Under the pieces are notes generated by a model, which saw nothing but the letters and a program-made list of their open reading frames with translations, was not told the origin of the DNA and searched no databases. From the NCBI GenBank assembly GCA_009602735.1, contig WELA01002258.1:140746-204745 (forward strand): a DNA stretch of 64,000 nucleotides, read 5' to 3'. Source of the stretch: Mesotaenium endlicherianum. Taxonomy: Eukaryota. How positions within the stretch are numbered: position 1 is the stretch's first letter; every line of letters starts with the position of its first letter. Positions 2,437 through 60,524 of the stretch are shown here, one piece after another. Both the position numbers and the translations under genes were made by a program.

Positions 2437-2842
2437 CCAAACGCTCACATATAGCACACTTGTATGACCTTCTCAAAGTACTCCTTGCAAATGAAGGTAA
2501 TCTATGACTTTGCTTACCACTTGCAAAAATATTCAAGTGACTGGAAATCGACCAAGAAGACATCGGATTGCTTTGCATTGATAAGAGTGTGATCTACATG
2601 CATACGCTTGCTATAGTTTCTTATACTAATCACTTTAAATTAAGGGAGCTATGCAAAACGCAACTCATTGATTGATGTACCTATCCATATATATTCACCA
2701 ATCATGGAAATCTACATAAAACTGGTGGGTAAAACCATGTCTAACAAAAAGGAAAAGCTCATAGCTGATGACCTGTACATGTGAAAAGACTACTAGAAGT
2801 TCGGACTGGACGCTACTGGGCAGCTGTACAAATAATCACTCT

Positions 2843-3380
2843 TACATAAGCAAGGTTAGAAGACAGTGCGTATCAATGGCTTCTTGCCTTGGATTCAGAT
2901 CTCTCTCAGTAAGCTGTACAAGAGAGTTGGCCTCGTTTTTGAATGCCGAACTCGAGAGCAATGCCTAGCATATGTACATGGAATGAGTTTACTGTTCAAC
3001 GGCCAGTGCGATGGCACCGCCTACCCGAGAGTTAACCACGTTGGTAGGACCTCGGTTAACCAAATCCACCGCCATCTCCCATCATCCCGAATTGCCATCC
3101 ATCATAGGGATGTCATCTGGCCATTCATCTAGCCTATCACACTTAGATGCATATCGAGGCAGTTTGCTGCTACCGAGTACGGAAGTCAGCTGGCTGTCAA
3201 AGAATGTGTCAACAAGCTGACTTAAGTTGACTTCAGCCTGCTGCTTCCAGCTGAGTCATTAAACTGATATTATATATGAAATCCAGCAGACTGATCATTA
3301 ACTAAAGTTCAGCAGGTTAAACTTATTTAACTATTATATTTTAATTAATTTTATATCTAATAATATACTGATTCATTACA
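2843..3380 (-). repeat. 3' LTR of A1 (distal end missing)
   Basis: Ends ...GATTCATTACA at 3380, adjacent to the PPT (AAGTTGGAGGGGT on the minus strand). Homology stops near 2843. Confidence 0.88.
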
Positions 3381-3459
3381 ACCCCTCCAACTTCATTTGT
3401 TGTCGCCTCGACAACATTAAACTGCAGAAGTCTTAAATACTGACTGCCTCTTTAGCCTG

Positions 3460-5109
3460 TCACGTAGGGGGCCGTTCTGGGGCTCCAGGATCAGGAGACT
3501 GAGATCTGGACCTAGATCTGGACAGCCCTCTAGGTCTGTCAGTTGGCCTTTTAAAGAACCCCGTTTGCTCTACAGTTGGACCTCGAGGAGAACAAAGGAT
3601 GGTAGCCTGCTCTTCACCCACTTGGATGTTGATCCCCACATAGACAGGCATTCCAGTAGGATGCTGAAATACATTGGCAAGAGGTACATGTCCCTGAGCG
3701 AAGGGGGAGGCCGGCATACCTCTGACCCACCCGCGTGTCCCTCTTCTGGCACCCCTGTCCCCTGGGGATTTTTGTCTGTGTCTGCTGCCAAGTACAGCAG
3801 GTGGGCTGGGGGAGCGAATGCGGGGTCCAGTTGCCTCCATGACCGGGATCACGTTCCATATACCTGATCTAGGTTCCTTAGGAAGTGCCCCTGCCTGCTC
3901 CTGGGTCTCCTGAGTACCAGCTCCTGATGCTTCTCCTCTGCCTTGTTCTTCTTCCTCCTCCTCCTCATCCTCCTCCTTCAAAAGAGTTGCAGTCTCGTCC
4001 ACTAAGTCGTCCTGCTCCTTGGTAGACATGGAGTAGTCTACTGACCTCCCTTTCTTAGGGCGCGCTGGAGGTTGCTTGGCCTTTAGCCTGCTGATATCTA
4101 TTCGGCCTGCATTCTTCGCCCATTTGACGAAGGCATGCTTTCCCTTAGAGAAGCAGTCTCTCCCCCTCCTCCTGTGCTCTTTGGTCTCTGCATTCATATT
4201 GCTCAGGCAGCCATTCAGCCTGGGGTCCCAAGGGGCAATGTGAGGTGGTAGGATGAGGTAGCCGTCTAGGCCATAGTGGAAATCGTCTGGTTGGGCTCGG
4301 TCACACTCCTGCTTTTTGTTTGTGACGGTCATCCACCTCAAGTCTGTTGGCTGCTGGTAGTACTGGGGTCCATGCTCAGCCTTTCTCAGACATGGGAACC
4401 AGTGGGGAGACAACATCTGCTGTCCTGCTTCCTTGGCCAAGTACTCCCAGCTCCTTCTCTCAACTTCGTTGTAAGCTGGCAATAATGTGAGGTAAAATAC
4501 CGTATCCTTAAAGCTATCGGGCCGCATGCTCACCATCTTGATGAGTCTCTGATCTCCCACTATTCCCGGTATTGGGACTGGCTTGTTCTCTGAATCATCA
4601 GCAAGGTACCGAGCCTGCTCTGCTGTATAGCCCACCATCTTGGCATAATCCTCGTAGAGGACCACACCAGTGTGTGTCTCAATGTACCTATCCAGTGCTG
4701 CAGCTCCTTCCCTCTGTAGCAGTGTTGTCTGTTCTCGCTTGTTGATCTCCTGGGCTGCCAGCAATGCTTCCTTCAGGTTATCAAAGTTTTGGCCACCCAC
4801 CACAGTTTACCTGTAAGTGGCCAAGCTCTTCTGCCTGTCCGCTACAGCCTTTTTCCTTCTCTCCTCCTCTGCCGCTGCCGCTTCGTCTTGTTGTTTCTTC
4901 TGTCTCTCCTCCTCAGCCTTCCTGAGGTTTTTCGCTTCCTGATCTTTCTTCCTTTGTGCTTCTTCTGCCGCCTCTTGTTGTTTGCGGACCCTTTCTTGTT
5001 CTCTCTTGGTGAGGGACGTCGCCGCCAGCTCCTTGTAGTATTGCTCCATTGTCCTCCTGGCCTCTTCGGCCTTGCGCTTTCTGTCCTCCTTTTGTGTGGT
5101 GGGAGCCAT
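3460..5109 (-). pseudogene. ORF3 of A1: ~549-aa accessory protein of unknown function with one premature stop
   Basis: ORFs 4807-5133 and 3460-4803 are in one frame, split by TAA at 4807-4809 where the other copies have TAC (YRYTV). ATG at 5109. Charged coiled-coil-like N-terminus, conserved core, acidic tract, SP/RS-rich tail. Confidence 0.85.
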
Positions 5110-5499
5110 TCTGCACATACAACTAGGGCACAAGTTAGTAGGATATCGACCTTTGTCATAGGAGTTGTAGGAAGGGAGTAAGTTCGTATTAGTATGGTAT
5201 GTTCGTTCCTGTTTACCTCACAGGGTGATTGCTAGGAGTTGACGTAGTTGTGGTGCGCTAGACATAGACGTATGAATGTGTTTTCAGGTGTGTTATGTGA
5301 TGTATTGCTGTGCGAGGCCCCTGTTTCCTTCAGCCAAAGGTGCTTTATGTGGGTCAGGCTGTCCCCTCTGTCACTATGCTCACACTTAGGATTCACATAA
5401 CCGTCCCTTTCTCGCTCTCGCACACTAACTGTCATATACTTTCCCCTCCAACTTAAATGGAGACAGGACCTCCTGTCACCTGCCCTTGTCAACTGAAAT

Positions 5500-8400
5500 G
5501 TCTGTTAGGGAGGTGCTTCAGCCGCCCGAAGGTGGAATCGTTTCAACGCCCCTTTGGCATTAGTCAGATGGTCTTTAAATTCCCAAGTGTCCCCAGAGGC
5601 ATCGTAACCCTTCCATCGAATGAGGTACTTCATGACATATTTAGACGATCGACGAACCAAAGACGATCGACCCAGACAGGGCCAAGCTTTTTCTTGACCA
5701 CACCAGGGAGGTACAGGTGCTGAGAATGCAGTTTGACTATATCGCCCTTAGAAAATGTCAGCTCCCAACGGTGTTGATTGGCGTATTTTTGTTGGTTTTC
5801 TTGGGCTTTGTGCAGGGAATGTTGGACTTCTGACAGGGTGTCAGCAAACTCCTGAGTTAACTGGAGGGAAACGGGATTGTCAATCCCTTCAAAGTGAGTT
5901 AAAGACTCCCCTAGCACATCTAAAGGAGACTTAGGGACTCTACCCAGGCTGAGTTCAAAAGGAGTCTTGCCCGTTGATGCGTGCACCGCACTGTTGACCG
6001 CAAACTGAATTTGAGGCAACAAGTCATCCCAATTATCTTGTTTTTGGTTGATATATGCTCTCAGCACCTCTTGCAGAACTCGGTTAGTTCTTTCAGTCTA
6101 CCCATCATTCTGAGGGTGGTTAGCTGTGCTGAGCAGTTTTTTGACTCCCATTAACTCCATGTCATGATTTATTGAGTCGAGGTTGCCGCACGAACCCGAG
6201 CTACAAGCGTGTGAGCGATCAACCTCGAACGGGCACTTGCCTCTTTGCATTTGTGTGATTTAGTTTATTAAGTTGCTATGCTCGCATGCCTAGGGGATAG
6301 ATGCCACGTGACAAGTCAACACTTGTCACGTGCGCCAGACCTACTAGACGCACCAGAGGCACGGGTCGAATACCCGTCCAAAACTGGACGGTGGCACTTG
6401 ACTTGTTTTCATAGCCACTACAGGCCGCAGGGACCCAAGCGACAGCCCGAAGCAAAGGCGACAAGGGTCGAGGGGGGCCACGTGGAGCCACCGGAAGGTG
6501 GCGGGCTTCTGCGCTTGGCCCAGGCGCACCCGGCAGCCAGCCCGAGCACTTAATTGTGCTCGGCGCCAAGCGACGGGAGCCACCAAGGCCACGTGGCGCC
6601 ACCGGAAGGTGGCGGGCACCTTCAAGTGGCCCAGGGGCACTTAAATGCCCGTCACTCGGGCCCAGGCACTCTTAAGTGCCCGACACCCAAGTGGCGAGGC
6701 CACCAAGGGCACCCAGGGCCACCGACCGACAGCTGCAGCCCGTCGATTGGCCCATGCGCATTCGACCAAGATGTGCTCAGCCGACAGGAACCGTCACAGC
6801 CTGCAGGAGTACCACAGCTTAGCGGGAAACCGTCCGATTGCACAAACATAAGTGTGCAAGCTTGTCTTACAAGCTTAGCATGTGCTAAAGTGAGCTTGAC
6901 CTATCACAAGCATTTAGCATATTCTAGCATCTCGTTTTTGATTGGATTGAATAGTAACTAGCCTATTGGAGCGCTAGCACAATAGGTATATATGTGTGTA
7001 TGCAAAGGTAGATCTAAGATAAAGACTACATGCATTGCATCCGCGCCTAACCCGCCAGGTTTCCAGGAGTAAAAGTACTAGAGATGTCCCTAGAAGAGAC
7101 ATCTTTTAGAAGTCCATTATGCCAGGTGTAAGTAACAGAGATTATCAGTAAAGCTTACACTTTTATCTCTTGTGTTTTCAGGACCACTTAGTGACTCTCT
7201 TGTGAAGAGCAAGCCCTCCAGGCTTCCAGTCACTTGAAGAACTTCACAAGTGGTGAGCAAAGTCACAGCTTAAGCCCTTGCCATAGGACTACTCTGAAGA
7301 TCATGATGTGCTTCCAGTGATCTTTTGGGCCATACTTCATTAGTTGTTTTCCTACCAGATTACAGTCTTGAGGTGCTCACTCTGGATAGTACACTTCCCT
7401 TAATTATAACATTTGACGCTTGACTCCCTTTTATAAAGCCCCCTGTATTGTAAACTTCATTGCAGCAAAGCCTGCTTGCTTATTATGCATTGCTTGTGTC
7501 GATAGTACGCACCCGACCTCCAAGCGCACGACATCCATTAAAACTCTCCAGAACTTAGAGGTAAATTTTGAGTCTCTGTCTGAGATGATATTAGAAGGGA
7601 GCCCATGTTGGCATACTACATGGTTGTAGAACTGTCTCGCTGTTTCGAGTGCAGTTACTTTGACAGTTGTGGGGATAAAAATGACCATTTTTGTTAGTTT
7701 ATCCACGACTACCAGTATGGAATCATGCCCATTGGCGGTTCTTGGTAGTGTGACCACCCAGTCCATGGATATAGTTTCCCAGCGTCCAGCTGGGATGGGA
7801 AGTGGTTGCAAGAGACCTCTCGGTGGTGTGTGCCTAGACTTATTTCTTTGACACTGATCACGGGATTTCATATATTTCAAGACCTCCCGGGGCAACCCCT
7901 CCCAATGATAATGTTTTGCCAGTTTGCCAACAGTTTTGGCCTGCCCCAAATGCCCACCCAGTAAACTGTCACGCGCTTGACTCAGTAAGAGAGACCTTAT
8001 TTCCAAATAATTAGGAAGGACCAGCTTCAGCCTGCCTAAAGTGGTTTCAGTCACCCAGACCCCTCCCTTAAGCCGGTACCCGAGTGCAGTAGCACAACAC
8101 ACACCAGTAGTGGGGCTGGGCTCAAATGTTGGGTCCGAAAGGTAGGCTTTTCTAAGTTGTTCAAGGAAGGACTTTTTCACCTTTAGTGAAGTGAGTGTAC
8201 ACAAGACTTTATCTACAGCATGCTGACTAAAGTTCCTTTCTTGCAAGTCAAGTCTTCTAGAGAGTGCATCAGCAGGATTCAACTTCCCTGGTTTGTAGTC
8301 GATCTGGACTTGGAACTGCTCCAGCACCTGGCTCCAGCGGTTCTCCCTCCTCGACAGCTTGGACTTCTTCTGAAAGTGAGTCAGAGCTAGATGATCTGTA

Positions 8401-10480
8401 ATCACCTTGAAAACTTTACCATGTAAGTATGCTCTCCACTCTTTGAGCACATGAATGATAGCTAGTAGCTCTTTATCATGCACTGAGTAATTAATCTCAG
8501 CTGGATTAAATTTCATAGACTCGTACACCATTGGGTGCCACTCCCGCCGTACCTTACCATCCTTTGTGGTTTTGTCAGCAGGCTGCAACAAAATAGCACC
8601 CATGGCAAAGTCAGAGGCATCAGTGACCACCTGCACTGGTTTGCTGGGGTCATACACGGCTTGTACTGGGGCAGAACAAAGGGCATCTTTAAGGGTCTGG
8701 AAGGCAGCCTGCTGCTCTTCCCCCCACACATACTCGATGTCTTTCTTAGTAAGGTCAGTCAGTTTACTGGCCTTTGTGGAATAATTCTCAATAAATCTCC
8801 TATAGTAGTTAGCCAACCCGAGGAAGGATCTAACTTCAGAGACAGACTGTAGTACTGGCCAGTCCCTTATGGTCTGGACTTTCTTAAAATCCACACTGAT
8901 GCCTTCTTTACTGACAACGTGGGCTAAGAATTCAATACTTTCCTTAAAGAAATCACACTTGCTTATTATAGCATATAACTGATTTTTTCTCAAAATCTCC
9001 ATGACTGTCTTTAAGTGTTTAGCGTGTTGAGCTTCATCTCTAGAGAAAATTAAAATATCATCCAGGAAAACTTGCACAAATTTATCCAAATACGGCCTGA
9101 AAATGTCATTCGTAGCACCCATGATGGTCGCAGGAGCATTAGTCAGTCCAAATGGCATCACGTTGAACTCATAGTGTCCATAACGTGTGCGGAAGGCAGG
9201 CATGTGTTCATCCCCCTCAGCAATTCTAATTTGATGATAACCACTCTTGAGATCTATTTTACTTTAACACCCTAGCACCCGATAGGGTATCAAGCAAGTC
9301 CTTGATTCTTGGTAAAGCATACTTGTTCTTTACTGTAATCTTGTTCAGGGCTCTGTAATCCACACACATCCGCATACTGCCATCCTTTTTTTAAACAAAT
9401 AGGATGGGTGCGCCGTAAGGTGATTTACTGGGGGAAATATAACCATTTTCCTCAAGCTCTGCAATCTGTGTTTTCAACTCCTCGCTCTCCACATAAGACA
9501 AGCCGTAAGTGCGTTGCCATGGTGGCTAACTCCCAGGTAATAAATCAATCCTATGATCTACTTCCCTCTTAGGTGGTAGTCTCGGAGGCATATTAAAAAC
9601 TTCCGTGTACTGAGCAACAATCTTTGCAGCAGTAGGGTGCTCCGGAGGGCTTACCTTTTTCTCAACCACTTCTTCAGGTTGAGGAGGTACCTCTCTTAGC
9701 AGCAGACAGAACATTCTGTCTTCCTTCTGGTTCCAGCTTTTGACGAACTCCATTGCATTCAGCAACTTGCATCCTTCTGGAAGCCTCTTCTTTTCCTTCA
9801 TTTGCCATCCACACAGGACAAGAGGAAGAGCACTGGTGGGTGCCAAGTCAGTCTGCCCATCACTGGCTCCTCTCACTTTAACTGTACCTCTGCTCCAACA
9901 CACTTCAGCTTGATGTCTATTAAGCCAGGACCTGCCTAGCACGAGATCATAAAAGCCAGTGTTGAGTACCTCAAATGTAAGCGTTTCAGTTAGAACTGCA
10001 ATGCCAGAACCTAACTGGACCTCAATAGGCTTGGTTATAACTCCTCCCGGAATACTTGAGGCATCTCCAAGGAATATTTTTCTATTTGCTTGGGTGACAG
10101 TAGGCAGCCTTAGCCGCTTAACTAAGTCCTTATGGATAAAAGTATGTGACGCCCCTCCGTCAACAAATGCCCTCACCTTCCTACCTGCAATCATGCAATG
10201 CAGTAGGATAGGGGGGACTGTCTTTTCCTGACTTTCGCATTGTTCTCCTGACGTAGCGAAGAAATGTTGGACATCAGGTGGAACAAGAGCATCCAGAGTG
10301 TGCACTCTCTGGATGTCTATATTGCTGATGGTCTCCTTTATCTGGTTGTCAGGCATGCATAGTGAATCCAGTTCAGCAGGACCCATAATACCTGCTACGA
10401 GGGCAGCTAGTGACGACTCACTATCTCTAGCATCCTCACAGTCAATAGACTGGATTACTGACTGTTGCTGTCTTCTAAAG
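5500..10480 (-). pseudogene. pol: pol of A1 (PR, RT, RNase H, integrase, partial chromodomain), frameshifted and interrupted
   Basis: PR motif [45 protein letters not shown] and ISDRD; interrupted at 6160-7533; deletion near 5660. Confidence 0.92.
6160..7533. mobile_element. Putative solo LTR, family D (1374 bp), inserted in the A1 integrase
   Basis: TGTCATG...CACGACA termini; 4-bp TSD TCCA at 6156-6159 and 7534-7537; removing it restores the integrase sequence; no long ORF. Confidence 0.8.
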
Positions 10481-12880
10481 GCTGGTCTTTTCTATCGACC
10501 TTCGGAAGATGTTTGACTGGACACTGTTCTCTGTAGTGGCCCAATTGCTGACAATGGTAGCAAATGGATTTTGATGAGGCTGGTCTCGGCTTAGTCCTAC
10601 CGCCACCTCTTCCATGGCCACCTCGAGAGTAACCACCTCTCCCCCTAGATTGCATAGCATTATACTCATACTCGTACTCATCACCCTGATCATCCTCAGC
10701 CTGGTCTCCTCCAATTGCATTGTAGGAACCGTGGGGCTTTTTTACAATCTTAGACACCAAAGCTTTACTCTGGCGCTTGTGATTGAACTGTAACGATTTG
10801 AGCTTTTTAGGCGTATCTGGGACTTTTTCCCAATCACCTAAAATACGTTATACTATTTATCATAAGTTAATTGATAAAGAATTGCATCACATTGAATTAT
10901 TCGCCACACACGTGTGCGATGAATTCCCGGTCGATTGGCGAAACGACCGAGATCCTATTGCAAAAAGCGTCGTAACGTAATTCGACTAGTTCGCAAAAGT
11001 ACGACATAATTATTCATAAAGCTACTTTGAATAATTATGAGATGATAATTTAATTAATCATTGTTTGATTAAGTTATGTTGACTGTCATTATTACGAATA
11101 ATGGACAATCACAGGTTTCGGATTACGACTAGTCGTAATACGAAGAAACTAATACGAACAAACAGTCGTAATCATTAATACGAACAAACAGTCGTAAAGT
11201 CAAGCGAAACGAAATATGCGAAGTCGCTCTGCATCCGAGCGACTATCGTTTGAAACGTTCACACCTAACCGATTGGCCAAAGTAGCTTTTTAAACTACCG
11301 GTTCATGACCAAAGCATGTGTACGCGACTCCGTGATCAATCGCGACTTTTTCGGAAAGTCGCGAGAACGCGAAAACGCCCGTTTGGCGCGAAACGATTTT
11401 TCGGAACCCGTCGAAAAGTCTCCAAACGGCCAACTGCGCGTTTCGAGCATTCGGCCGAATGGTACACGTCCCTTCGACCGTTTTCGTTGAACATGAACCA
11501 GTGCCCTAGGTGGTGACTCGAAGCACTCCAGTGCCTCATGTTGTGCAGGTATTTATACCTGCAGAGTCATTGTGAGTGCAACTCTCACAAGCACACATTC
11601 TACGTTAGTTTTCACTTTCGCTCTTTCGAGTATTCGTCAATTTCCACAAGTATACAGGATTTCCTTCCACTTGAATTAAATATTCCTTGAATACCGAGGA
11701 AAGATCCTCTCGAAAAGCAGAAACGTCACATGAACTGCTGCTGATCCCAAGCATCAGCATCCTGGATCAAGTCAGCGAGTTTCTCATACTTCTTCTCAGC
11801 AAAATGACCAGAGACTTTGGATTTCAAGCCATACCTGAAGTATGCTATCCTATACCGTTCTGGCAAGTCTAACAGCTTCATCATGTTGTCTTGGAACTTT
11901 TGAGCAAACTCAGCATCTGAAGTGGTCTGCTTCAGTGTCAGGGAGATCATTGCATAGATAGCTTTCTCCTGCTAGTTGATGACATCAAACTTCTCATGCA
12001 ACTTCTCCACAAACTCTACCCACGTAGGGTCACCGAGTTGCTGAGTTTTACGCTCTCTTTTCTAGTATAACCACCAGTCTGCGGCACTGCCTTTCAGTAG
12101 CGCACCGGTGTGCCTGACCTTCTCGTAATCTTGCAGTTCTGGGTAGTTCTCCAGCCACTGCTCAACATCCGCGAGAAACTTGATCAGGTAATATTTTCTG
12201 TTTCCCTCAGAATCATAGTCCTGGGGAGGTTTTGGCTTGGGCTTACCTGGCCCTCTGCCACCACCACCAGTGGTTTGAGACCCCAGTTGGTCTCTGTCTC
12301 GCAGTAGAGACATTCTGATTCGTTTGTCCTCCTGTTGGGTCTGATACATGGTCGCCATTTGCGACTGCATTTGAACGAACAATGCTCCCAAGTCTACACT
12401 CTGGGGTAGTAGTCTAGCAAATGCAGCAGCAGCATTGGCATCTACTCGATGAGTAGTGTCCTCAACAGTCCCTCTCGCTCCTGCAACAGCAATTCCTGCC
12501 GCATTCAGCCGGTCACGTATTTGACCTAGGGGTACATTGAGTTGTACAGCAGGAGGTGGGTTCAGAACATTGGCCCTGGATGCCATAAGTTCCTCAACCG
12601 TACGCTCGTCAGCGGGCTGTCCTTCCCTCCTTTTTGTATCCTCAGCAGCCTTTGCTAATTGTTCAGCTTCTAATCTGGCTCTCTCCTCCTCAGCTTGCTG
12701 TGCTGCGACTGCGGCAATAGCAGCTGCCTCATCTGCAGCCTCTCTAGCTGCAGTATCTGCCACTGCTTCAGAATAGGTACGGGTTCCCGCTACATGGCTT
12801 TCCGCGTGGTTTTCCACATTCTCGTTATCCTGGTTCTCCATGTCTCGGGAGTTGCTAGTTTGAGACTTTGTCCTTACCAT
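10455..12880 (-). pseudogene. gag: gag of A1, interrupted by solo LTR E
   Basis: MVRTKSQ start; LKGSAADWW; CCHC knuckle CYHCQQLGHYREQC; in-frame stops near 12062 and 11972. Confidence 0.9.
10789..11730. mobile_element. Solo LTR, family E (942 bp, CpG-rich), inserted in A1 gag
   Basis: TGTAACG...CGTCACA termini; 5-bp TSD TGAAC at 10784-10788 and 11731-11735; gag resumes on both sides. Confidence 0.88.
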
Positions 12881-12901
12881 ACAAAGAAGACTGTGATAAC
12901 T

Positions 12902-12913
12902 GCTCCGATACCA
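12902..12913 (-). promoter_or_regulatory. Primer-binding site (tRNA-iMet type) of A1
   Basis: TGGTATCGGAGC on the minus strand, 1 nt after the 5' LTR. Confidence 0.9.
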
Positions 12914-12914
12914 C

Positions 12915-13326
12915 TGAAATGAATCGACTTACTAAATAGGNTAAATAGGCGATTAACAATTAATATAGATCTTTATATCAGCAAGTAATCTTTATGGTAA
13001 TTTTCGTTAACTGGTTAAACGGCAAAGGACAACACACTAGCAGTGAATAATAGGGATGTCATCTGACCATTCATCGAGCATACCATACTTAGATGCATAT
13101 CGAGGCAGTTTGCTGCTACCGAGTACGGAAGTCAGCTGGCTGTCAAAGAATGTGTCAACTAGCTGACTTAAGTTGACTTCAGCCTGCTGCTTCCGGCTGA
13201 GTCATTAAACTGATATTATGTATGATTTCTAGCAGATTGATTATTTACTAAAGTTCAGCAGGCTGAACTTAATTAACTATTATATTTAAATGAATATTAA
13301 ATCTACTAATATACAGATTCATTACA
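12915..13326 (-). repeat. 5' LTR of A1 with an internal deletion of ~300 bp
   Basis: TGAAATGAATC...GATTCATTACA. The junction gtgaataata|gggatgtc near 13052 skips the LTR centre seen in other copies. Confidence 0.88.
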
Positions 13327-14031
13327 GAAGGTGGACTTTATATTTTTCTAGCATTTTGTATGTATAGAGTGAGATTTTAGAAGAATTTTAATTTTTGTTT
13401 CAAGTCGTTTGGATAAGGATTGAGAAAGTTATAGGTTTGGAAATTTTCAGTGAGTTTTAAATGTCACATATTGAATTTAGTGACAAGGACAGATCTAGTG
13501 ACGAAAATTTCGGTTGGAGTCCAAGAAGTAGGACAATGAATCATGAGGATTCCAGAAAACTATGTACGATTACGTAGAGTGCCAAAGTGATCGTAAAAAC
13601 TCTAGAAGCTTCGTGAGGAGTTTGTGGATTGTGTAGTAGAATATTCTAGTGTGATTGTGTGCCTGTGAGTGTGCTAGCGTGTCCAACTAGGCAAGGTCAC
13701 CTACATGGAAGAAGCCATAGGAGAAGGTTCTGGAGGTACTTTGCTAGAGAGGACACTTAGAGTTAAAGCATAAATGGGAAGCACAAAGAAGTAGAGGGAG
13801 TCTAGTCTAGTCTAGTCTAACCTTCTTATCTTGTACACGACTTTTCTTAATAAAGTGAGTTCTTTTCCACTCCTCTCTCATGAAGCTCTCTTACTCTTAC
13901 AAGGGTGGCACACCACCAGGCCACTCCACCTTGTGTATGCAACTAGGAAAGGTCCTCGTGCATGCTTCCACTCGCGGGTGAGGGTGCTTGAGTGTGTGTG
14001 GGCGCACTCTTCGCACCTTTCTCCCCTTTCA
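13327..14031 (+). mobile_element. LTR-like remnant (family F), distantly related to LTR C
   Basis: Shares blocks with LTR C (gagaaagttataggttt, ctagagagga.cacttag) and the terminus cccctttca; AATAAA near 13849. Confidence 0.55.
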
Positions 14032-29893: not shown

Positions 29894-30014
29894 TGATTCA
29901 TTACAATCCCTCCAACTTAAATTGTTGTCAACTCGACAATTCTTCTATTATTGTTTACAACAAAGTAACACACATACATCACAACCAACTGAATCTAAAA
30001 CAAAGACAACACCA

Positions 30015-31519
30015 AACTAAGTACCAGGGGCTCGGTCTTTTGGGGAGCGAGTCCTGGTACCGGATCTCCTTCTCCAGTCTGATGGTCTCTTGAAACCTGG
30101 GGGCTCAGATCAGGGTGAACCAAGGGGTGAACACAGCAACTGGACAGCCTACTCTTGCACTGTCTGCAAGTTGATGGAGACCGCTCTCTCTTGTGCAGCT
30201 CTCAAACTGACAGGGACATACACTGGCATACCGAAGGGGTGCTGCATGACATGGGCTAAGACTACATGCCCTCTATGAGAGGGGGATGCTCTGTCTGACT
30301 GAGTCTCACCTCCTGGGGTGAGACTCCTCCTGCTGAAACTCCCCAGCCACAAGAGATCTGGGTCTCTTGGTGGGCTGGTATCCCCAAGCTGCTGCAAGGC
30401 TGCCTGTGCAACAGCACTTCCAGTCTGCTGTAGAGTGGGGGATGTAGCGCGGGTCTATGCCTCAGCAGGAGTAGACTCCTCTTCAGCGCCTTCCTTCTCT
30501 TTGTCCTCCTGTTCCTCTGAGACTTCTAGAGTCTCTCTGGTCATCTCCTCCAGCCGTTCCCGAGAAAAAAAGTATCCCACTGACCTCCCCCTTTTGGGTG
30601 CAGGTGGGAGGATGCTGGGTCCAGACAGCATACAGGTCTTTCTCCCCTTGCTTACTTGCCCATTTGGCATAAGCATGCTTCCCCTTAGAGAAAGAACCTC
30701 TAGCCCTGATTCTATCCTCCTGTGTCTCCTGACTCATGCAGTCCCTGACTCCATCCAACCTTGGGTCCCATGCTGCAATATGAGGTGGCAGCACTATCTT
30801 CCCCTGCAAATCTGCCAGGAAATTATCTTCTGCAGCTCTGTCATTTTGCTGGTCCTTCATTGTGATGGTCATCCAGCGCCAGTCAGTGGGCTATAGAAAG
30901 AACGCAAGATTCGTCCTCTTTAAAGTGCAGGGATACCAATGACCTCAAAAACCCAACTGACTGGTCTTCCTTGCCAAGAACACCCAGCTTTTTCTCTCCA
31001 CCTCGTTATACATGGCCTTGAACCGGTTGTGGGAAGTGGTATCCTTGAAGCTGTCTGTATGCATAAGGATCAACCTGATGACCTTGTCTGTGCCCCAGAT
31101 CCCAGGTATTGGCACCATTTCAGATTCACCTATCTGGGCCAATGCTTTGGCCTCCCGGAGTGTATATCCCACCATCCTGGCATAGTCATGGTGTAGTAGA
31201 AGCCCTTGCCCATCACCGTGTAGCGGTAGCTTTTGATTCTCCTCTGTTCCTCCTCAGCCTGTTGCTTCCACCTCTCCTCAGCCAACCTTTGTTCCTCCGT
31301 CTTCTTGGCTTCCTCTGCAGCCTCTTTGTCCTGCTCCTCCTGTCTTAGCCTGGCCTGTTCTTCCTCCTCCTTCCTCTTTTGAGCCTCCCGGTGCAGTCGG
31401 AGTCGCTCTGATTCTCGAGAAGAGATGGAGGATGATTCGATGTCGTTATGGAACTCCTTGTACTCCGCCTGCGCCTCGTCCGCCCTTCTTTTCCTCTTGA
31501 GTTTAGACAATTTTGTCAT
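30015..31519 (-). pseudogene. ORF3 of A2 (fragmented)
   Basis: Pieces 31130-31528, 30945-31175, 30483-30872, 30455-30676 and 30149-30397 carry VGYT, DSFKD, YNEVERKS, LPPHIAAWDPRLDG, FSKGKHA and GHV..QHP..PVYV. Confidence 0.85.
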
Positions 31520-31949
31520 CCGGCTCATTCATACCACAATGAAGTTAGTGTAGTCACAATATCATGCACAGGATTGAGTACTTTGACAGGGAAGAACGTA
31601 GTAGAGGGAGTTAGAGCATGCAATACATGGTGTAAGTAAATTGAAAGTGCGAGCGTGCTTGAGAGGAAAGTGAGTGTGAGCGCAGTTGAGTGTGGAGGAT
31701 AAATATGCGAAGGAAATCGGCAATCGGCTAGTTTCTGAGATGTTTATCCCACTCCCTCCAACTTTATGCATAGGTGGGTTGCCTGTTTCAACTGTCACTG
31801 GGCTGCTTGTCACAACTGTCACTCCCTGTCAACTACTGTCACTTTCTGTCACTAACTGTCACTTTAGGCCACGTTTGGCCACATTTCCCCTCCAACTTCA
31901 ATGGAGACAGGACCTCCTGTCACCTTCCCTTATCAATCGAAATGACAGT

Positions 31950-39015: not shown

Positions 39016-40492
39016 GTTGCTGAGGTTGCTTCGCCTTCACACGACAGTCTTGAGCCAGATGTCCAAGCTTGCCGCAATTATAGCAGGGTCCTCTCGGCTT
39101 GTAATTTTGTTGCCTGCGCTGGTTTTGGACAAGTCCCAACTCCATAGGTACTGGACCTTGACCACTTGTGCTTGGCACTTGAGAACCAAACTGTCAATGT
39201 TCTCAAAAGTTGTGGCTGCCTGTAGTGAAACAGATAGATAAAGTACTTAGTAAAACAGAATACTTTATCTATTCAAGACAAGGATCTTTGAACACAAGTG
39301 GTAGCTTCTTGAAAGAGAGATGGCTTCTTGAAAGTTAATATATTTCTGGATTTTGGCAAGTACAAGAGTGATTCTGGAATGTCTTTCTATGTTCTAGCTC
39401 TTGTTTATATACTTGCTACATAAGTAATTTCTAGGAAGGTGTATGTTGATGTGTTGGCACCCAACACATCCCAAAACTTGCCACCTCTTTCTAGAATAAT
39501 GTACACATGTCCTTTTGACCTAAAAATGGCACATCTGACTTTTGCCACATGGAGTTCTTCTAGGTCTTTCCTCTAACTTCGAAAATGCCTTGGAAGGTTC
39601 AAAGGACATGAACCAAGTTACTAGAGTACCTATTCACACTTGACTCCACACCATACTACTTCAAATATATTTGAAAACATTAAAATATATGCAAACTAAT
39701 GTATAATAACTCAAATCACTACATCACCCCCCCCATAGAAAAAGCGACGTCTCGGCGCGTCAAGTTAGGTCGTACACATGTGGAGCAAACTAGTCAACAG
39801 TTTCAAGTCAGATGCCACACATGTAAAGAGGACTAGTCAAAAGCGCCAAGTCAGGTGCTACACATGTAAGGTAGACTAGGCAATGTCGTAGGTGGTGTGA
39901 CCTTATTGGCTAGCCTACTCCTTAATGATAAAGAAAATTGTACAAGTTGGCCAAAAATCTGGCACAAATTCAAAAATTCATAGCGGCCACAGAACTGCTC
40001 CAAATCTGAAAATTGGAGTGCCAGACGGACCGCGTCAGAGAACTCTACCGGGTCACCAAATTTGAGAGCATTCTCATTTCTGGAGTGTCGTTGAGAGCTG
40101 AGAGAGTAGGCACTCCTCCAAATCTGTGCAGAAACTTCTGAAAATCATAAGTCCTTCTATACTTCTCCAACTTCTGCAAACTAAGTCTCAAACTGGGCGT
40201 TGTAAGATGTTCTACCAGAGTCTTGAGTTTCAGAGCATTCCAAGTTCAGGGGAAGGCACAATGTCAGAAGGCATATTCTGTCCTAACAATGCCAGCAGCC
40301 TGACCCCCTTCTACTTAGAGCATCATATCTCTCTCACCAGTGCTCCAAATTGAGCAAACTTGGACTCTAAATGACCGGCTACTCATGGACTACAGCCAGG
40401 TAAATTTTCAGAATTTATTATGCAGAGACCTATTACCAGTAGCAGTTTTAGTTTTCTGTCCAGAAACTGCGAGAAGAGAAGAGTGTCTAATG

Positions 40493-43400
40493 TCAATTTT
40501 TCCTCTTTCTTGTTCTTGCAGGCTGCCTCCAAGGGGTCTTCTGCTGCTTCTTGATGGTGGCAGGCTGCCTCCCTGAAGTCTTCGGGCTTCTAGTAGAGAG
40601 ACTTGGGGCTGGTCCAAGATGGGGGTTGGCGGCATGGAAGCGCTTCAACTTTCTCTGAACTTTGTCAAGGTAGTGCGCCGCCACCCAACTATTCTCCGAA
40701 TCTGGATATCCTTTCCACTTGATCAAGTATTGCTGCTGTCTCCTGAAATTTCTCATAGCCACTATGTCTTCCACTTCGTACTCCAAATGATCATCCACTA
40801 TTGTTGGGGCTGGTGGGGTTGTCACACGTCCTGGGAACTTGTTGTCGGGTTGCACATATGGCTTGAAGAGGGAAGCGTGGAATACGGGGTCGATGTGCAT
40901 AGTCTGGGGAAGTTCTAGCTTGAAAGCAACGGGGTTGACTTGCTGGATAATCTTGAAGGGTCCCAAATACTTGGGAGAGAACTTGCTGCCGGCAGGCCTG
41001 TTGTTCAGGGAAATGTTCTTGGATGATAGTAACACGTTGTCACCCACTCTGTACGTAATTTCTCTTCTGGATCTGTTCGCCACTCTTGCTTGAGCATCTT
41101 GCGCGTGTTGTAGAGCTTTCTTCGCTGCTGTAAGGGCTGCTTCTAATGTCTCCATAAAATCTGTGGCTGCAGGTACTTCATCATGGCCAGCCGTGAAGCT
41201 CAGTGGCGTGGTCGGATGGAAGCCATAGTTGAGGAAGAATGGGGACTCTTGGGTAGAGGCCTGCGTAGTGTTGTTGTAGGCAAACTCGAGGGGGGTCAAG
41301 TACATGTCCCAGTCTTGCTCGAGGGTAGACACGTAGGCCTTTAGAGAGGTCTTTAGGGTACGATTCATACGCTCGGTTTGCCCATCTGATTGTGGGTGGT
41401 AGGCAGTAGACATATCCAGCGATGTACCCAAGTTCTTGAAGAGATTTTTCCAGAAATGGCTTGTGAATCTTGGATCTCTATCTGACACAATTCTTGATGG
41501 TAGTCCATGGAGTCGGAAGATGTTGTCAAAGATGAGTCTTGCAAGTTGTGGTGCTGTAGCCTTAGTCGTCGTGGGAATAAAATGAGCCATCTTGGTAAGT
41601 CTGTCCACCGCCGTGAGTATTGCATTATGGCCTCGAGGTGTCACGGGCAAGTCCACGATAAGGTCCATTGAGATGTCCGTCCATTGTCTTTCGGGGATTG
41701 GTAGTGGTTGGAGGAGTCCTCCCGCCTTTTGCGATGATGGCTTGATTCTTTGGCATGTGTCACAGCTCCTGCAGTACTCCTTGACTTGCTTAGACATGCC
41801 TGGCCAACAATAAGTCCTAGCTAGAACGCCCGTGGTCCTTAGGATTCCAAAGTGTCCTCCAAGAGGGTTGTCGTGTGCTTCTCGTAGAAGCAAGAGCCGG
41901 AGGTCTAAGTCATTAGGAACACATCTCTGGCCCGTATCTTGCCTCACCCAATAATTGCCTTCTTGCTTCTTGCATGGGTCCAAGGCTGCTTCTCCGTTCT
42001 TGTAGTAAGGGTCTCTTTCATAGGCGGCTGAAAATCGAGCTTCCAGATCTGTCTTCAGGGATACCATCACTGCATTTAATTGCAGTCTTGAGAGGGGGTC
42101 AGCCGGGTTTGTCTTGCCGGGCTGGTACTGAATCGTGATGTTGTATTGTTGCAAGTATCCGCTCCATCTTGCTTGTCTCCTTGAGAGATACGGCTGCGTT
42201 TGGAGGTGCTTTAACGCCTCGTGGTCCGTGGTGACCAGTACTTTGCGTCCTTCAACGTAGCAGCGCCAAACCTTCAAGGCATGTACAATCGCCAATGCCT
42301 CTCGCTCCGTGGTTGTATAATTTTGCTCGGCTGGATTTAGCTTCCTTGACTCGTAGGCGATGGGCTGCAGTCCCTTGCCTTGGTCTTGAAGCAGGATTGC
42401 TCCTATTGCATAGGAAGATGCATCGGTGATGACGTGGAAGGGCCAATCTGGGTTTGGACTTGGGAGTGTGAGCACCGGGGATGTGGTCAATCTTCGCTTT
42501 AACTCTTGAAATGCCTCTTCCTCTTTCTCGGTCCATGTATATAGCCTGTCCTTCTTGAGTAGATCTGTCAGGGGGGCTGCTATGTGCGAGAAGCCTTGGA
42601 TGAATTTTCTGTACCAATTGGCAAATCCCAAGAATGACTGGAGTTCTTTCTTGGTCGTGGGGGTTGGCCATTCCTCCACCACCGTGGTCTTCTTGGGGTC
42701 TATCTTGATGCCATCAGCAGTCACGTGGAGACCTAGGAACTCCACTTCTTGTTTGGCAAACTCGCATTTTGACTCCTTCGCAAACAGCTTGTTTTGCTTC
42801 AATACTTCAAGGACTTCTTTCAAGTGTCTCGCATGCTCTTCAAGGGTCTTGCTGTAGATAAGGATGTCATCGATGAATACCACCACAAATCTGTCCAACA
42901 TGGGCTGAAATATGGTGTTCATCATAGTCATGAAAGTTGCTGGCGCGTTGGTGAGTCCAAATGGCAGGACCATGAACTCAAAATGTCCATATCTTGTCCT
43001 GAATGCCGTCTTCTCTATGTCCGGTTCTGCGATGCGAATCTGGTGGTAGCCGCTCCGTAAGTCAATCTTCGTGAAGTACTTGGCTCCAACCAGCCGGTCC
43101 ATGAGCTCATCCATGCGCGGCAGCGGGTATCGATTCTTGATGGTGATCTTGTTGAGGGCGCGATAGTCCACACACATCCTCAAGGTACCATCTTTCTTCT
43201 TGACAAATAGCACCGGGGCTCCAAATGGCGACTTGCTAGGTCGAATGAAGCCATGCTCCAGTAGCTCCTTGATTTGCTTCTTGACTTCGTCTAGCTCCGT
43301 GTATGACATTTTGAACGTAGGCCGAGAGATGGGCTTGCTTCCGGGCTCCAACTCTATCTTGTGGTCTACGAATCTTTTGGGGGGTAGGCCCTTGGGCAAT

Positions 43401-44158
43401 TCCGGGGAGAACACTTCTTTGTAGTCCTCTAAGACTTCTTGTATCTCCTTGGGAACGGGGCTGCCTTCTTGACTCTCGATGTCTTTCTTGATGTCTTTTG
43501 GCGTGATCAAGGCCAAAAGAAGCTCGTGTCCCTTCCTCACAAGTCTCTTGAGTTGGAGGGCGGACAATAGTATCTCGTGTGCCGGCTTCTGGATGTCTTG
43601 GGTCTGGATATTCTGGATTGCGCGCAAAATACAGATTCTTGAAGTGATGTCATTCTTGATCTTGATAGTACCGGTCCTCCAATCAACTTGGGGGTTGTGC
43701 TTGGTCAACCAAGGCGTCCCTAGGATGACGTCGTACTTGCCCAATTGCATGGGGGAGAACACTACTCTATCCTTGAAGGACTTGATAGAGAGTGCCAAGG
43801 GGTACGTCTTCTTGGAAGGGGTAGTATAGGAGAATCCATCGGGCATCATAATCTCCTCGTCGTGGTCAAGAGTTCGCATAGTAATACCGTGCTTGGTGGC
43901 AAAATCTGCAGCAATGAAGTTGCCTTGAGCTCCGCTATCCACCAAGATGTGGACCTTCTCTCCTCCAAGGTAACCTCTCAAACTCATTGGGGCTGGAACG
44001 TCGTCTTCAACGGGGGTCTCCACCTCACTTGGCGTGTTGCCTTCTCGTGAAGTGGGTCTTGGGGTGGTAGGCTCCTGGCCTACCGGCGCTGTCCGTTTTT
44101 TGACAACTTTTTGGGGCATGAAAGTGCACGATGGCCCTTTTCCTTGCAATAAAAGCAT
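40493..44158 (-). CDS. pol: Pol polyprotein of B1 (PR-RT-RH-IN-chromodomain), in the -1 frame relative to gag
   Basis: [41 protein letters not shown], and chromodomain [19 protein letters not shown]; uninterrupted 1221 codons. Confidence 0.96.
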
Positions 44159-45360
44159 AGTCCAGCCGTCATGAGAGCTTCTTTTTCAGCCGGGGAGAGT
44201 CTTGCTTTCACTCCTTGCTGGTTTCTTGCATCATAAGTGTCATTGGAGGGTCTTCCACTCTTCCGGGCAGCCGCGGGGTCCCTTTTAATAACTCCGATTT
44301 CCATGGGTGTGGGTCCAGATTCGGATGTGGAAGGGGCTGCGTACACCCGCGTCGTCGGTACCCGTGAAGATGAAGGCACGGAGTGCTTGAAATCCAAGGT
44401 ATCCACCTTTTGGGCCACTTCAATGATCTTTGAGAAGTCCGTCAAGTCGCGTAACTCCACTTCCTTTGCCACCTTGGGTTTGAGGCCAAAGATGTAGCGG
44501 TCAATCTTCTCCTCGAGAGACATGTTGGGGATCTCAAGAGTGAGGGCGTGAAATCTGGATGTATACTCTTGAACGGACGTCGTTTGCTTGAGATGGTGGA
44601 GCTTTCCTCGGGCAATCTTCTCCGCATTGATGGGCATGAATTGCTTCTTGAGGGCCTCACGAAAATCTGCCCATCTTGCATATGATGGTGGGGGCTCTTG
44701 GCCGAGCATGGGGTGCGCCATAGCTTGATATATAGCCGCTTGATAGTTACGCCACCATGATGTTGCTGCTCCTCTAAGTAAGGTAACGGCAAAGGGAACG
44801 TAGTCCTCCTCGGGTACTTCAAGGAATGCGAGGTACGTCTCCACTTGGTAGAGCCATAAATTCAGGTTGGCACCTTTCCCGGGGTTGAAAGTGTCGGGTT
44901 TGCCGGGCTTGATGAGTTTCCTTGCTCTCGTTGGCTCTTGTGGAGGCGCTTGAGCCGGGGCTGGATTTTGAGCATTGCTCGCAATAGGGGCAACCATGGC
45001 AGCCATAGCTTCTCTTGACGCTTGCACGGTTGCTTCATAGGTGGCCAAGCCCACTTGGTTGTGGACGGTCATTAGGAAGGCTGCCCACTCATTTGCGGGA
45101 ACTCCTTGTGGTGGGGTCAACTTTGCTATAGCGGCTGCCACGGGATTTGACGGTGCTCCTCCTTGTGGTGCTTCTTGTTGTTGGAGATTTCCTTGAGTAG
45201 GCTCTCCCATCGACGCTGGAGGAGGGTGTGCTCCTCCTTGTGGTGCTTCTTGTTGTTGCAGATTTTCTTGAGTGGGCTCTCCCATCGGCGCTGGAGGAGG
45301 GTGTCTTGGAGAGGAAGGGCTTCCTTCGAAAGCTTGCTGTTGGTCTTGAGGATCGGCCAT
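44080..45360 (-). CDS. gag: Gag of B1 (426 aa)
   Basis: [41 protein letters not shown]; begins ~25 nt after the PBS. Confidence 0.95.
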
Positions 45361-51533: not shown

Positions 51534-53176
51534 TTAGGAGGGAGATGTCCCTGGGGCCCTAGGGTCAGGGGAGTGTGACCTCCTCCTGTCTTGGGGTCTC
51601 CTGAAGCCTGGGGGATCCGTGTAGAGATCCCGCGGAGAACGCAATAACTGTGCTGTTTCCTGCTGTACAGTCTGAAACTGAATGGAGGCAGCCTTCTCTT
51701 GGGCAGCCCTCAAACTGACAGGTACATATACCGGAATCCCAGATTGATGTTGCATGACATGAGCTATAGGCACATGCCCTCTCTGCGAGGGAGATGCTGG
51801 CAGGCCTCTGGCTATTTCTCTAGCAGCCCTCCTGTCTGCCCTGTCTGACTGGGTCTCCGAGCCTGGAGATGGGCACTGTCCTCTGGCAATTTCCAGCCAA
51901 GTGGAATCTTCCTCTCCAGCGAGCTGATGCTGGGCCAACCCAGTCTTCTCCCTTAGAGGGGATGTGGCAAGCGTCAGGATCACAGCGGGGCTAGTGTCCT
52001 CCTCCTCGCCTTCGATCCCTCCTCCTCTCCGTCCCCTAGTTCCTCTGAGACTGCTAGGGTCTCTTCTGTCAGCTGCTCCAGCTCTTCCCGAGAAAAAGAA
52101 TATCCCACTGACCTTCCCCTTTTGGGTGCTAGTGGGGGCTGTTGAGTCCGGACCCCATACAGGTCCTTTTCTCCCTGCTTGCTTGCCCAGTTGGCATAAG
52201 CGTGCTTTCCTTTAGAGAATGACTCTCAGGCCCTGCTCCTGTTCTCCTGCATTTCCTGGCTCATGCAGTCTCTTACTCCATCCAGTCTTGGGTTCCAAGC
52301 TGCAATGTGAGGAGGCAACACTATGTTCCCCTGTAGGTCTGTTAGGAAGTGTTCCTCCCTTGCCTTGTCATTTTGCTGGTCCCTCATGTTGATGGTCATC
52401 CATCGCCAATTGGTGGGCTTCTGGAAGAAGGCAGGGTCTCTCCTTTTGAGAGTACAAGGGTACCACTGCCCTGCAAATTCCAGCTGACCAATTTCCCTCG
52501 CCAAAAATCCCTTGCTCCTTCTCTCCACCTCATTATACATGGCCTTGAACCTGTTGTGGGATGTGGAGTCCTTAAAGCTGTCCGCGTCCATGGGGATCAT
52601 CCTAATGACCCTATCTTTCCCCCAGATACCTGAAATTGTTACAGCTCCTGCTTTGTTCACCTGGGCCATTGCCTTGGCCTCTCTGACCGTATATCCTACC
52701 AACCTGGCATAATCGTGATAGAGGAGGAGTCCTGTGCTGACCTCTATATACTTGTCAAAGTTTTCAGATGTTTCCCCTTCCCTCTGCAGGAATTCCTTTT
52801 GCGACTCACTGCGACTTCTCTGGGCATATTTGAAGGCCTCTTCCAGCAGATCATAGCCCTCGCCCAACACTGTGTAGCGGTAGCTGCTGATTCTCCTCTG
52901 TTCTTCTTCTTCAGCCTGCTGCTTCTGTCTCTCCTCGGCTTGCCTCTCCTCTTCCGCCTTTTTGACCTCCTTTGCAACTTTTTTGTCCAATTCTTCCTGC
53001 CTCATCCTGGCCTGTTCCTCCTCTTCCTTCTTCTTTTGTGCCTCCCGTTGTTGTTGAAGTCGTTGTGATTCCAAAGCGGAGATGGAGGATGATTCGATGT
53101 CGCCACAGAATTGCAAGTATTTTGCATGTGCCTCTTCCGCTCTTCTCTTCCTCTTAAGTTCCGACTTCTTGGTCAT
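51534..53176 (-). pseudogene. ORF3 of A4 (one stop, one frameshift)
   Basis: ATG at 53176; open to TGA at 52226; continues in frame (ESFSKGKHAY..PKRGRSV); frameshift near 52040; C-terminal part 51534-51983. Confidence 0.87.
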
Positions 53177-53549
53177 CCTGCTCAATCATAAACACAATGC
53201 ATTCAGTAAAGTCATGATACTTTGCCGCTACTGAGTGCCCGTGGTGAAGAAGAACGTGATAGGGAGAGTCCCTAGTGCGTAGTACCTTGTGTGAGTGAGT
53301 ATAAGAGAGAATTGAGTTAGAAAGAAAAAGTGAGTATGAGCGCAGGTTGAATGTGCAGAATGGTTATAAAATTTGCCTGGCTGATCTCGAAACGGAACAC
53401 ACTCCCTCCAACTTAATTTTAAAGGTGGGCTGCCTGTCACAATTGTCACTTCCGGTCACTAGCTGTCACATTCCCCTCCAACTTATATGAAGACAAGACA
53501 TCCTGTCACCTGTCCGTGTCCACTGAAATGACAGTTAGGGAGGGGTGCC

Positions 53550-59491: not shown

Positions 59492-60524
59492 ACAAAGAAG
59501 ACTGTGATAACTACTCCAATACCACTGAAATGAATCGACTTACCAAATAAGCAATTAACAAATAATTAAGATCTTTATATCAGCAAGTAATCTTTATGGT
59601 ATTTTCTGTTAATTGGTTAAACAGCAAGGGACAACACACTAGCAGTGGACAATACTCGGAAGTCAAATGCAAGTAAACTAGCATCAATAATGCAATCAGG
59701 AAACTCATACTTAAGCAAGGCTAGAAGACAGTGCATATCAATGGCTTCTCGCCTTGGATCCAGATATCTCTCAGTAAGCAGTACAAGAGAGTTGGCCTTG
59801 TTTCCGAATGCCAAACTCGAGAGCAATCCTTGCATATGTACATGGAATGAGTTTACTATTCGACGGCAAGTGCGATGGCATCACCTCCCCGGGAGTTAAC
59901 CACGTTGGTAGGACTTTGGGTAACCAAATCCACCGCCATCTCCTATCATCCCGAATCGCCATCCATCCAAAGGATGTCATCTGGCCATTCATCTAGCACA
60001 CCACACTTAGATGCGTATCTAGGCAATTCGTTGCTACCGCGTACGGAAGTCAGCTGGCTGTCAAAGAATGTGTCAGCAAGCTGACCTAAGTTGACTTCAG
60101 CCTGCTGCTCTCGGCTGAGTCATTAAACTGATTATTTCATAAAGTCCAAAAGATTCAATATTAACTACAGTTCAGCAGGTTGAACTTATTTAAGTATTAT
60201 ATTTAAATGAATATTATCTCTACCAATATATTGATTCATTACACTGAGAGATATCTGAATCCAAGGCGAGAAGCCATTGATATGCAACGTCTTCTAGCCT
60301 TGCCTATGTATGAGTTTAGTGATTGCATAATTGATGCTAGTTACTTGCGTTTGACTTGCAAGTATTGTCCACTGCTTGTGTGTTGTCTCTTGCTGTTTAA
60401 TCAATCAACAGAAAATTCATAAAGATTACTTGCTGATGTAAAGATCTTCATTAATTGTTAATTGCCTATTTGGTAAGTTGATTCATTTCAGTGGTATCGG
60501 AGCTTTTATCACAATCTTCTTTGC

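Follow-up and report, generated by a model that had tools for sequence, protein, structure and literature searches.

How does a gene that lies behind gag and pol, at the 3' end of an LTR retrotransposon, come to be translated? The locus considered here raises this question, since a branch-point-like box and a candidate 3' splice site stand directly in front of the start codon of such a gene, ORF3, and the earlier note on this DNA had read them as the acceptor of a spliced subgenomic mRNA. Self-comparison shows that the window, i.e., the whole 64-kb stretch of DNA that was analysed, is a nest of LTR retrotransposons, and most of the family concerned (family A) is found on the minus strand. The features discussed below are collected in Table 1.

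Table 1. Positions of family-A features in the window; a slash marks a putative exon–intron boundary.
Feature	Copy	Position	Strand	Remarks
Element	A1	~2838-13052	minus	
Element	A4	50650-60243	minus	solo LTR inserted at 55192-55913
ORF3	A1	3460..5109	minus	549 codons, one in-frame stop at 4807-4809
ORF3	A4	51537..53176	minus	316 open codons, then stops and a frame change
Integrase chromodomain remnant with pol stop codon (5505-5507)	A1	5505..5648	minus	
Primer binding site (PBS) TGGTATCGGAGC	A1	12902..12913	minus	inside the proposed intron
Extra polypurine-tract motif AAGTTGGAGGG just after pol	A1	5444..5454	minus	
Polypurine tract AAGTTGGAGGG before the 3' LTR	A1	3383-3393	minus	
Branch-point-like box TACTAAC	A1	5140-5134	minus	
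Candidate 3' splice site GCAG	A1	5114-5111	minus	CAG 5113-5111, A 5110, ORF3 ATG 5109-5107; context TGCAG/A; exon 2 would start at 5110
Box TACTGAA	A4	53208-53202	minus	
Candidate 3' splice site GCAG	A4	53181-53178	minus	CAG 53180-53178, G 53177, ORF3 ATG 53176-53174; context AGCAG/G
Box CACTAAC	A2	31550-31544	minus	
CCG at the position of the acceptor CAG	A2	31523-31521	minus	context GCCG/G, then ORF3 ATG 31519-31517; read in frame with ORF3, it belongs to the Arg codon CGG
Competing AG (CTAG, 5126-5123)	A1	5123..5124	minus	11-12 nt past the branch-type A
Additional in-frame ATG, 9 nt before the annotated ORF3 start	A1	5115..5117	minus	ATG also in A2, TTG in A4
GTAAGT, candidate U5 5' splice site	A1	12927..12932	minus	TTA/GTAAGT, last exon base 12933
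GTAAGT, U5 of the 5' LTR	A4	59538..59543	minus	TTG/GTAAGT, last exon base 59544, LTR positions 701-706 of 718
Gag start ATG/GTAAGG, second donor candidate	A1	12872..12880	minus	

On the minus strand, the pol region of A1 matches the Pfam families gag-asp_proteas/RVP_2, RVT_1, RT_RNaseH, Integrase_H2C2 and rve in that order, which is the Ty3/gypsy order of protease, RT, RNase H and integrase, and the SH3-like integrase end (SH3_Tf2-1) was detected in A4. In A1, a match to the Chromo family (PF00385) at 5508-5648 of the minus strand reaches 32.0 bits at a cut-off of 25.1; the chromodomain is complete, in a longer form, in A2 and A4, and is partly lost in A1, where about 214 nt are missing at this place. 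Since a chromodomain is present, family A is a chromovirus, i.e., a Ty3/gypsy element with an integrase chromodomain. The LTR copies of the family are about 715 nt long. The PBS TGGTATCGGAGC, which we take to match initiator tRNA-Met, begins 1 nt past the LTR end, and the polypurine tract AAGTTGGAGGG precedes each 3' LTR of the family. The nearest pol relatives are 31–56% identical (the value of 56% holds over just 37% of the query) and come from plants, green algae, fungi and metagenomes; among the relatives found by the pol search, there was no close family to name. A metagenome contig that had been picked up by a degenerate chromodomain pattern was set aside as an unrelated element without ORF3.

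ORF3 is a frame of about 550 codons, in the sense direction, between the pol stop codon and the 3' LTR of A1, A2 and A4. Each of the three copies is broken by at least one stop codon or frame change. Comparison of A4 with A2 gives dN/dS values of 0.12 (107 codons) and 0.05 (168 codons), with dS of at least 1.3; ORF3 is therefore a real gene that was long under strong purifying selection, and a real gene behind some 5.5 kb of gag-pol needs a message of its own. The protein is hydrophilic, and half of its first 100 residues are charged. The maximum Kyte–Doolittle mean over 19 residues is 0.73 in A1 and 0.63 in A4, with a usual threshold of about 1.6 for membrane segments, and since a hydrophobic segment is lacking, ORF3 is not a membrane protein of the env type. 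The proposal of the earlier note that ORF3 is expressed like retroviral env thus holds for the place of the gene behind gag-pol but not for an env-like product. No Pfam family matched ORF3, and relatives were found neither by a word-indexed search nor by an exhaustive profile search of 1.84 billion representatives, nor in scans of metagenome and viral contigs or in the ESM Atlas; the AlphaFold2 model was poor, with a mean pLDDT of 37.2.

A plant 3' splice site is characterized by a pyrimidine before the AG, ideally in the context TGCAG/G, by a CTRAY branch motif about 18–40 nt upstream and by a U-rich tract. The letters and coordinates that had been reported for the motifs of A1, A4 and A2 are correct to the base on the minus strand. 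In A1 and A4, the AG is preceded by a pyrimidine, whereas A2 reads GCCG/G. The branch-type A lies 24 nt (A1), 25 nt (A4) and 24 nt (A2) from the G of the AG, or of CG in A2, and of the 20 nt that precede the AG in A1, 60% are pyrimidines and 45% are T. The branch motif is CTAAC in both A1 and A2, while CTGAA in A4 does not fit CTRAY. That A2 has CG for AG and that the genomic box of A4 deviates from CTRAY count against a splice.

The box of A4 takes another form in RNA. Five public RNA runs with the same species label were aligned to A1 (85% likeness) and to A4 (80% likeness); X5, X6 and X11 behave as strand-specific libraries, X8 and X9 are unstranded, and X5 and X6 are polyA libraries. All RNA reads over this box show CACTGAC, not TACTGAA, and CTGAC fits CTRAY; in four runs, the change was carried at 53208 by 3/3, 18/18, 9/9 and 31/31 reads and at 53202 by 3/3, 15/15, 9/9 and 30/30 reads. 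With this read-derived copy added to the three genomic ones, CTRAY is found in three of the four copies seen. Among the variants listed, none falls at 53178-53180, though less-supported ones were kept, and because of this the read-derived copy appears to keep the CAG.

The same letters can also be read, no less simply, as part of the start region of ORF3. In the ORF3 frame, A1 reads TGC AGA ATG, A2 reads AGC CGG ATG and A4 reads AGC AGG ATG, where an Arg codon opens with the AG of the acceptor, whose A also supplies the purine at -3 of the start context. It had been claimed that the acceptor of A2 is mutated; A2 does have CCG for CAG, but in the ORF3 frame the change is also synonymous (Arg AGA/AGG/CGG). 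That the AG can be explained as a -3 purine or as an Arg codon at the start is a further observation counting against a splice. According to this alternative, there is no splice site, and ORF3 would be translated from an unspliced RNA that starts internally, in the ~360–395 nt between the pol stop codon and ORF3, downstream of the extra polypurine copy. It is consistent with the Arg codon standing at the AG in all three copies (AGA, CGG and AGG), with the ATG that A1 and A2 have in frame, three codons earlier, and with the frequency of AG before ATGs in general, as 519 of the window's 2333 ATGs, both strands counted, have an AG ending 0–2 nt upstream (22%). In addition, the sequence past the post-pol polypurine copy starts in an LTR-like manner and could be a promoter-bearing remnant, and a study of a 3' extra ORF transcribed from a promoter of its own is among the references of PMC11963269.

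An unspliced leader, however, would keep the upstream ATGs, namely one at -50 of the ORF3 ATG in A1, which opens an overlapping frame of 105 codons, and those at -39, -26 and -13 in A4. Only an acceptor within the last ~10 nt removes the upstream ATGs of A1 and A4. Moreover, no pile of sense read starts is listed between the polypurine copy and ORF3, where depth is near nil, and an unspliced start region leaves unexplained why the box ACTAACTT is conserved 30 nt upstream. In favour of an unspliced RNA, junction reads were not seen, at a sense depth of 0–1.1. On balance, an internal start at this place is somewhat unlikely. If the splice is not real, the arrangement is an ordinary coincidence of motifs at a start codon.

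How readily such a coincidence arises can be seen from the window itself. YAG stands just upstream of 216 of the 2333 ATGs (9.3%), and YAG together with an upstream CTRAY accompanies 21 of them (0.9%). A1 and A4, each about 10 kb long, contain 10 and 25 acceptor-like sites as well as 7 and 11 donor-like sites (at least 7 of 9 consensus positions), respectively. Each splice signal alone is thus common, and its placement at one chosen ATG is an event of about 1% that was noticed post hoc; the abundance of donor-like and acceptor-like sites counts against the splice.

Conservation is informative in a different way. Over the 120 nt before the ORF3 ATG, A1 and A2 share 32% ungapped identity, which is the random level, and yet the 8-mer ACTAACTT is common to both at an identical offset, 30 nt before the ATG, so that the earlier observation of a geometry kept in DNA that barely aligns is borne out. 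A match run of at least 8 occurs in 0.7% of 20,000 random window segments (p ~0.007), and against a homologous background of 40% identity (the last 70 nt), our own arithmetic gives p ~0.04 for the ACTAACTT run. Two lineages of ORF3 have kept the branch-type box, though not the sequence around it. The comparison of copies as a whole covered three genomic ones, all of them broken, and one read-derived copy, and this small number counts against the reading as a splice site.

As to donors, six of the seven family-A LTR ends that were aligned carry GTAAGT 18 nt short of their terminus, and the two donors that had been suggested, one near the 3' end of the LTR and one at the gag start, are both present in the DNA. 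Five of the LTR ends read TTG/GTAAGT, a strong, consensus-type donor sequence, and that of A1 reads TTA/GTAAGT, while the end at 14755 reads GATAAGT. The motif has no counterpart in family B, an ORF3-less chromovirus family of the same window. In 3/3 leaders, the codon at the gag start is immediately followed by GTAAGG; this codon is ATG in two of them and GTG in A4.

The place of the LTR donor relative to the transcript can be judged from RNA. The 3' ends of sense RNA pile up at LTR positions ~436–449 (window 2945/2946, 55465 and 55477), and reads of one direction in X5, X6 and X11 cover the first ~440 nt of the LTR; a second LTR family (13436-14025, plus strand, with the PBS next in the reads) shows the same pattern in mirror direction. 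This suggests that the first mate of these libraries is antisense to the RNA, that R ends near position 440 and that U5 measures about 270 nt. With a U5 of this size, the donor would lie well inside the transcript and far enough from the cap. It also lies upstream of the PBS, and a splice from there would accordingly remove the PBS, as had been pointed out before. A TATAAA at LTR position 665 was rejected as a promoter because the start must be upstream of the R end (~436–449).

Splicing could also proceed through other sites, with the CTAG 12 nt upstream or an AG still further away as acceptor, and with the gag ATG/GTAAGG or another GTAAG as donor. With the CTAG of A1 (5126-5123) as acceptor, the earliest AUG would come from the in-frame ATG at 5117, the gag-start GTAAGG occurs in every leader, and each element offers 7–11 donor-like sites to choose from. 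The competing AG of A1, so close behind the branch-type A, is an observation that counts against use of the GCAG. On the other hand, acceptors further upstream would retain upstream ATGs, and none of the joints expected from these sites has been seen in the RNA runs either. Joined to the GCAG, the gag-start donor would put an AUG in the wrong frame 1 nt ahead of the ORF3 AUG; this AUG would open an overlapping frame of 65 codons in A1 and 8 in A4, and the site was for this reason rejected as the main donor. A spliced RNA made through such sites is improbable.

The RNA runs contain few reads on which a junction could be found. No joints into 5110/5111 or 53177/53178 were found in the five runs, where sense depth is only 0–1.1 (X5, X6 and X11), and none at either candidate donor in the same five runs, with very low sense depth. 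The joints listed, 7 on A1 and 12 on A4, include none at the candidate splice sites, and among the loose ends listed, none lies at either acceptor. The bin that contains the A1 acceptor (5002-5418) has a depth of 0 in 3/4 runs, and at the A4 acceptor, the sense depth is 0.45 and 0 in X6 and 0.36 and 0.65 in X11. Coverage of the A4 site by X8 and X9 is continuous at ~11–19x, and reads that pass through it without a break amount to ~11–14x, both directions summed. The lack of joints at either acceptor and these uninterrupted reads of X8 and X9 count against the splice. Given a sense depth of 0–1.1 and the small number of reads at least 99% like the window, the RNA neither supports nor refutes the splice. 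Nor do the missing joints amount to the refutation that the earlier note had defined, because sense RNA of ORF3 is almost absent from these runs.

Some RNA signals in A4 and A1 probably have other origins. A block of reads in the opposite direction extends over 53100-54811, and its limits match a joint of the 'opposite strands' type at 53114/54776 (15 reads), which speaks against reading the block as unspliced sense RNA; it suggests a rearranged relative rather than antisense or unspliced sense RNA. Two loose-end strings from A1 reads had no match within the window. One of the two, which starts exactly at the LTR end (12915 / 55192), was considered as an exon and rejected, being the flanking DNA of one LTR locus.

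It might further be argued that the ORF3 copies are silent relics and that the motif is a chance feature of dead DNA without present function. Every copy is interrupted by stops or frame changes, most bins over ORF3 have a sense depth of 0 in X5 and X6, and only 2–23 reads per run are at least 99% like the window. However, the strong purifying selection shows that ORF3 long worked, so that signals found even in relics would be traces of a real expression mechanism, and different ORF3 lineages have preserved the box. That the motif is a mere accident of dead DNA is therefore quite unlikely.

When these points are weighed together, a spliced ORF3 message is, at less than even confidence, the most probable single mechanism. 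TACTAAC..GCAG is tentatively regarded as the putative branch point and 3' splice site of a U5-to-ORF3 subgenomic mRNA. In this mechanism, the TTG/GTAAGT donor in U5 would be joined directly to the GCAG before ORF3, and the resulting mRNA would consist of R and most of U5 fused to ORF3, with the PBS, gag and pol removed. The spliced RNA would serve as the ORF3 message and, being devoid of a PBS, could not be reverse transcribed.

If this proposal is correct, an accessory protein of a chromovirus would be expressed in the manner of retroviruses and of Athila/Bagy2, and the donor in U5 would yield a message unable to prime reverse transcription. Spliced subgenomic expression would extend to a group of plant retrotransposons that do not, as a rule, have 3' sense ORFs, as far as the accessible part of PMC11728184 goes. 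Attention would also be drawn to a protein that has been under selection and is entirely uncharacterised. A broader account, doubtful as a whole, would be that a chromovirus lineage captured an orphan non-env gene of ~550 codons in the stretch from a retained polypurine tract to the 3' LTR, that the gene was selected and exchanged as a module between sublineages, and that it is expressed through a PBS-discarding U5-to-ORF3 splice as a non-replicating message. In that case, genes would be expressed on a retrovirus-like plan in plant retrotransposons whose extra ORFs are otherwise known from the 5' side of gag.

This kind of mechanism, a spliced message for a 3' ORF, is already known from Athila, Bagy-2 and gypsy. 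In retroviruses and in Drosophila gypsy (errantiviruses), the env mRNA joins a donor in the leader to an acceptor before the third gene. Deltaretroviruses and foamy viruses have donors within R/U5 whose use eliminates the PBS, and most retroviral env acceptors sit farther than 1 nt from the ATG. The proposed ORF3 message resembles retroviral and gypsy env mRNA in leading from a leader donor to an acceptor just before the third gene, and it differs in that the acceptor of family A would lie 1 nt from the ATG and the product is no membrane glycoprotein.

Among plant elements, spliced messages without gag-pol have been reported for the 3' ORFs of barley Bagy2 (PMC7264820) and Arabidopsis ATHILA (PMC7197481), according to the accessible parts of these reports. 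As in family A, the host is a plant Ty3/gypsy element, and the ORF follows pol in sense orientation, ahead of the 3' LTR. Unlike ATHILA and Bagy2, family A is a chromovirus, its splice is predicted, and its ORF3 has no hydrophobic segment or detectable relative. Chromoviruses of the plant Tekay clade carry conserved extra ORFs (aORFs) with no function assigned and with predicted helices and disorder; in the accessible part of the report, aORFs are placed 5' of gag in chromoviruses, and 3' aORFs are assigned to Athila-type elements (PMC11728184). Like Tekay, family A is a chromodomain Ty3/gypsy element with a conserved extra protein; unlike the Tekay aORFs, its extra ORF lies 3' of pol, in sense.

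In Grande of maize, the 3' ORF is antisense, whereas ORF3 of family A is in sense. The 3' internal ORF of Grande has been reported to be transcribed from its own promoter, in a study listed among the references of PMC11963269. Like Grande, family A has an extended stretch from pol to the 3' LTR that codes for an extra protein, and Grande is the model for the internal promoter considered above for ORF3 (PMC11963269 and PMC7264820, as far as their accessible parts go). The proposed splice of family A differs from known spliced messages for a 3' ORF in its host element, a chromovirus, and in its orphan, non-membrane product.

Copies A1 and A4 of family A, a Ty3/gypsy chromovirus, share 86–92% identity in their gag-pol and LTR DNA (window self-comparison), with a pol dS of 0.275. 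ORF3, the orphan frame between pol and the 3' LTR, retains only 43% protein identity between the same copies (3460–5650 in A1 vs. 51537–53540 in A4), and its synonymous sites are saturated (pS 0.80); the DNA homology of A1 and A4 ends right 3' of the polypurine copy that follows pol. It looks as if sublineages have exchanged ORF3 as a module. Shortly 3' of the pol stop, A1 has a single copy of the polypurine motif AAGTTGGAGGG, and A2 and A4 have two each; a further copy lies immediately 5' of the 3' LTR in A1, A2, and A4. Since the motif is found both after the pol stop and before the 3' LTR, the ORF3 module is flanked by polypurine-tract copies, which could be a trace of the acquisition of ORF3 or could act as internal plus-strand priming sites.

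Features located in the window, with strand and basis or remark
Feature	Position	Strand	Basis or remark
Polypurine motif AAGTTGGAGGG region, A1	3383–5454	minus	
Polypurine motif AAGTTGGAGGG region, A2	29908–31898	minus	
Polypurine motif AAGTTGGAGGG region, A4	51364–53484	minus	
Third-family LTR	13436–14025	plus	reads continue past 14025 into PBS
Family B chromovirus	39220–45900	minus	LTR, frame and domain analysis

Both LTRs of A1 are partial: the 3' LTR (2838–3380) consists of the first ~540 nt only and the 5' LTR (12915–13052) of the last ~130 nt only, and the two breakpoints are at most ~50 nt apart in LTR coordinates. Among the public RNA runs with the same species label, reads joining 13052 back to 2838 were found in X5 (2), X8 (12), and X6 (14). 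The integrase region of A1 carries a 1.37-kb insertion (6160–7535) that A4 does not have, and nine reads join 6156 to 7535 across it. Immediately 5' of the U5 GTAAGT, the candidate splice donor, A1 contains a 9-nt direct duplication (12934–12942) that includes an N at 12941; these 9 nt are missing from most RNA reads (31/37, 45/51, 18/21, and 43/44).

In the stretch mapped around A1, RNA depth is by far the highest over the LTR of a third family, reaching 170–300 in X5, X11, and X6 and ~580 per direction in X8, and fragment ends accumulate within this LTR at 13791–13798. Another joint, 53767–54057, is supported by eight reads in X8 and seven in X9. The 289 nt that it omits are bounded by GT..AG when read on the plus strand, in antisense to A4; the joint reflects either an intron in a rearranged relative or a deletion variant. 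Separately, a long CT/TC-type simple repeat at ~150–400 on the plus strand translates as SLSLSL.

In family B, the second chromovirus (39220–45900), both ORF3 and the U5 GTAAGT are absent. Its LTR pair is 99.8% identical, the reading frames of gag (426 aa) and of the chromodomain-bearing pol (1221 aa) are open, and the element looks like a young insertion.
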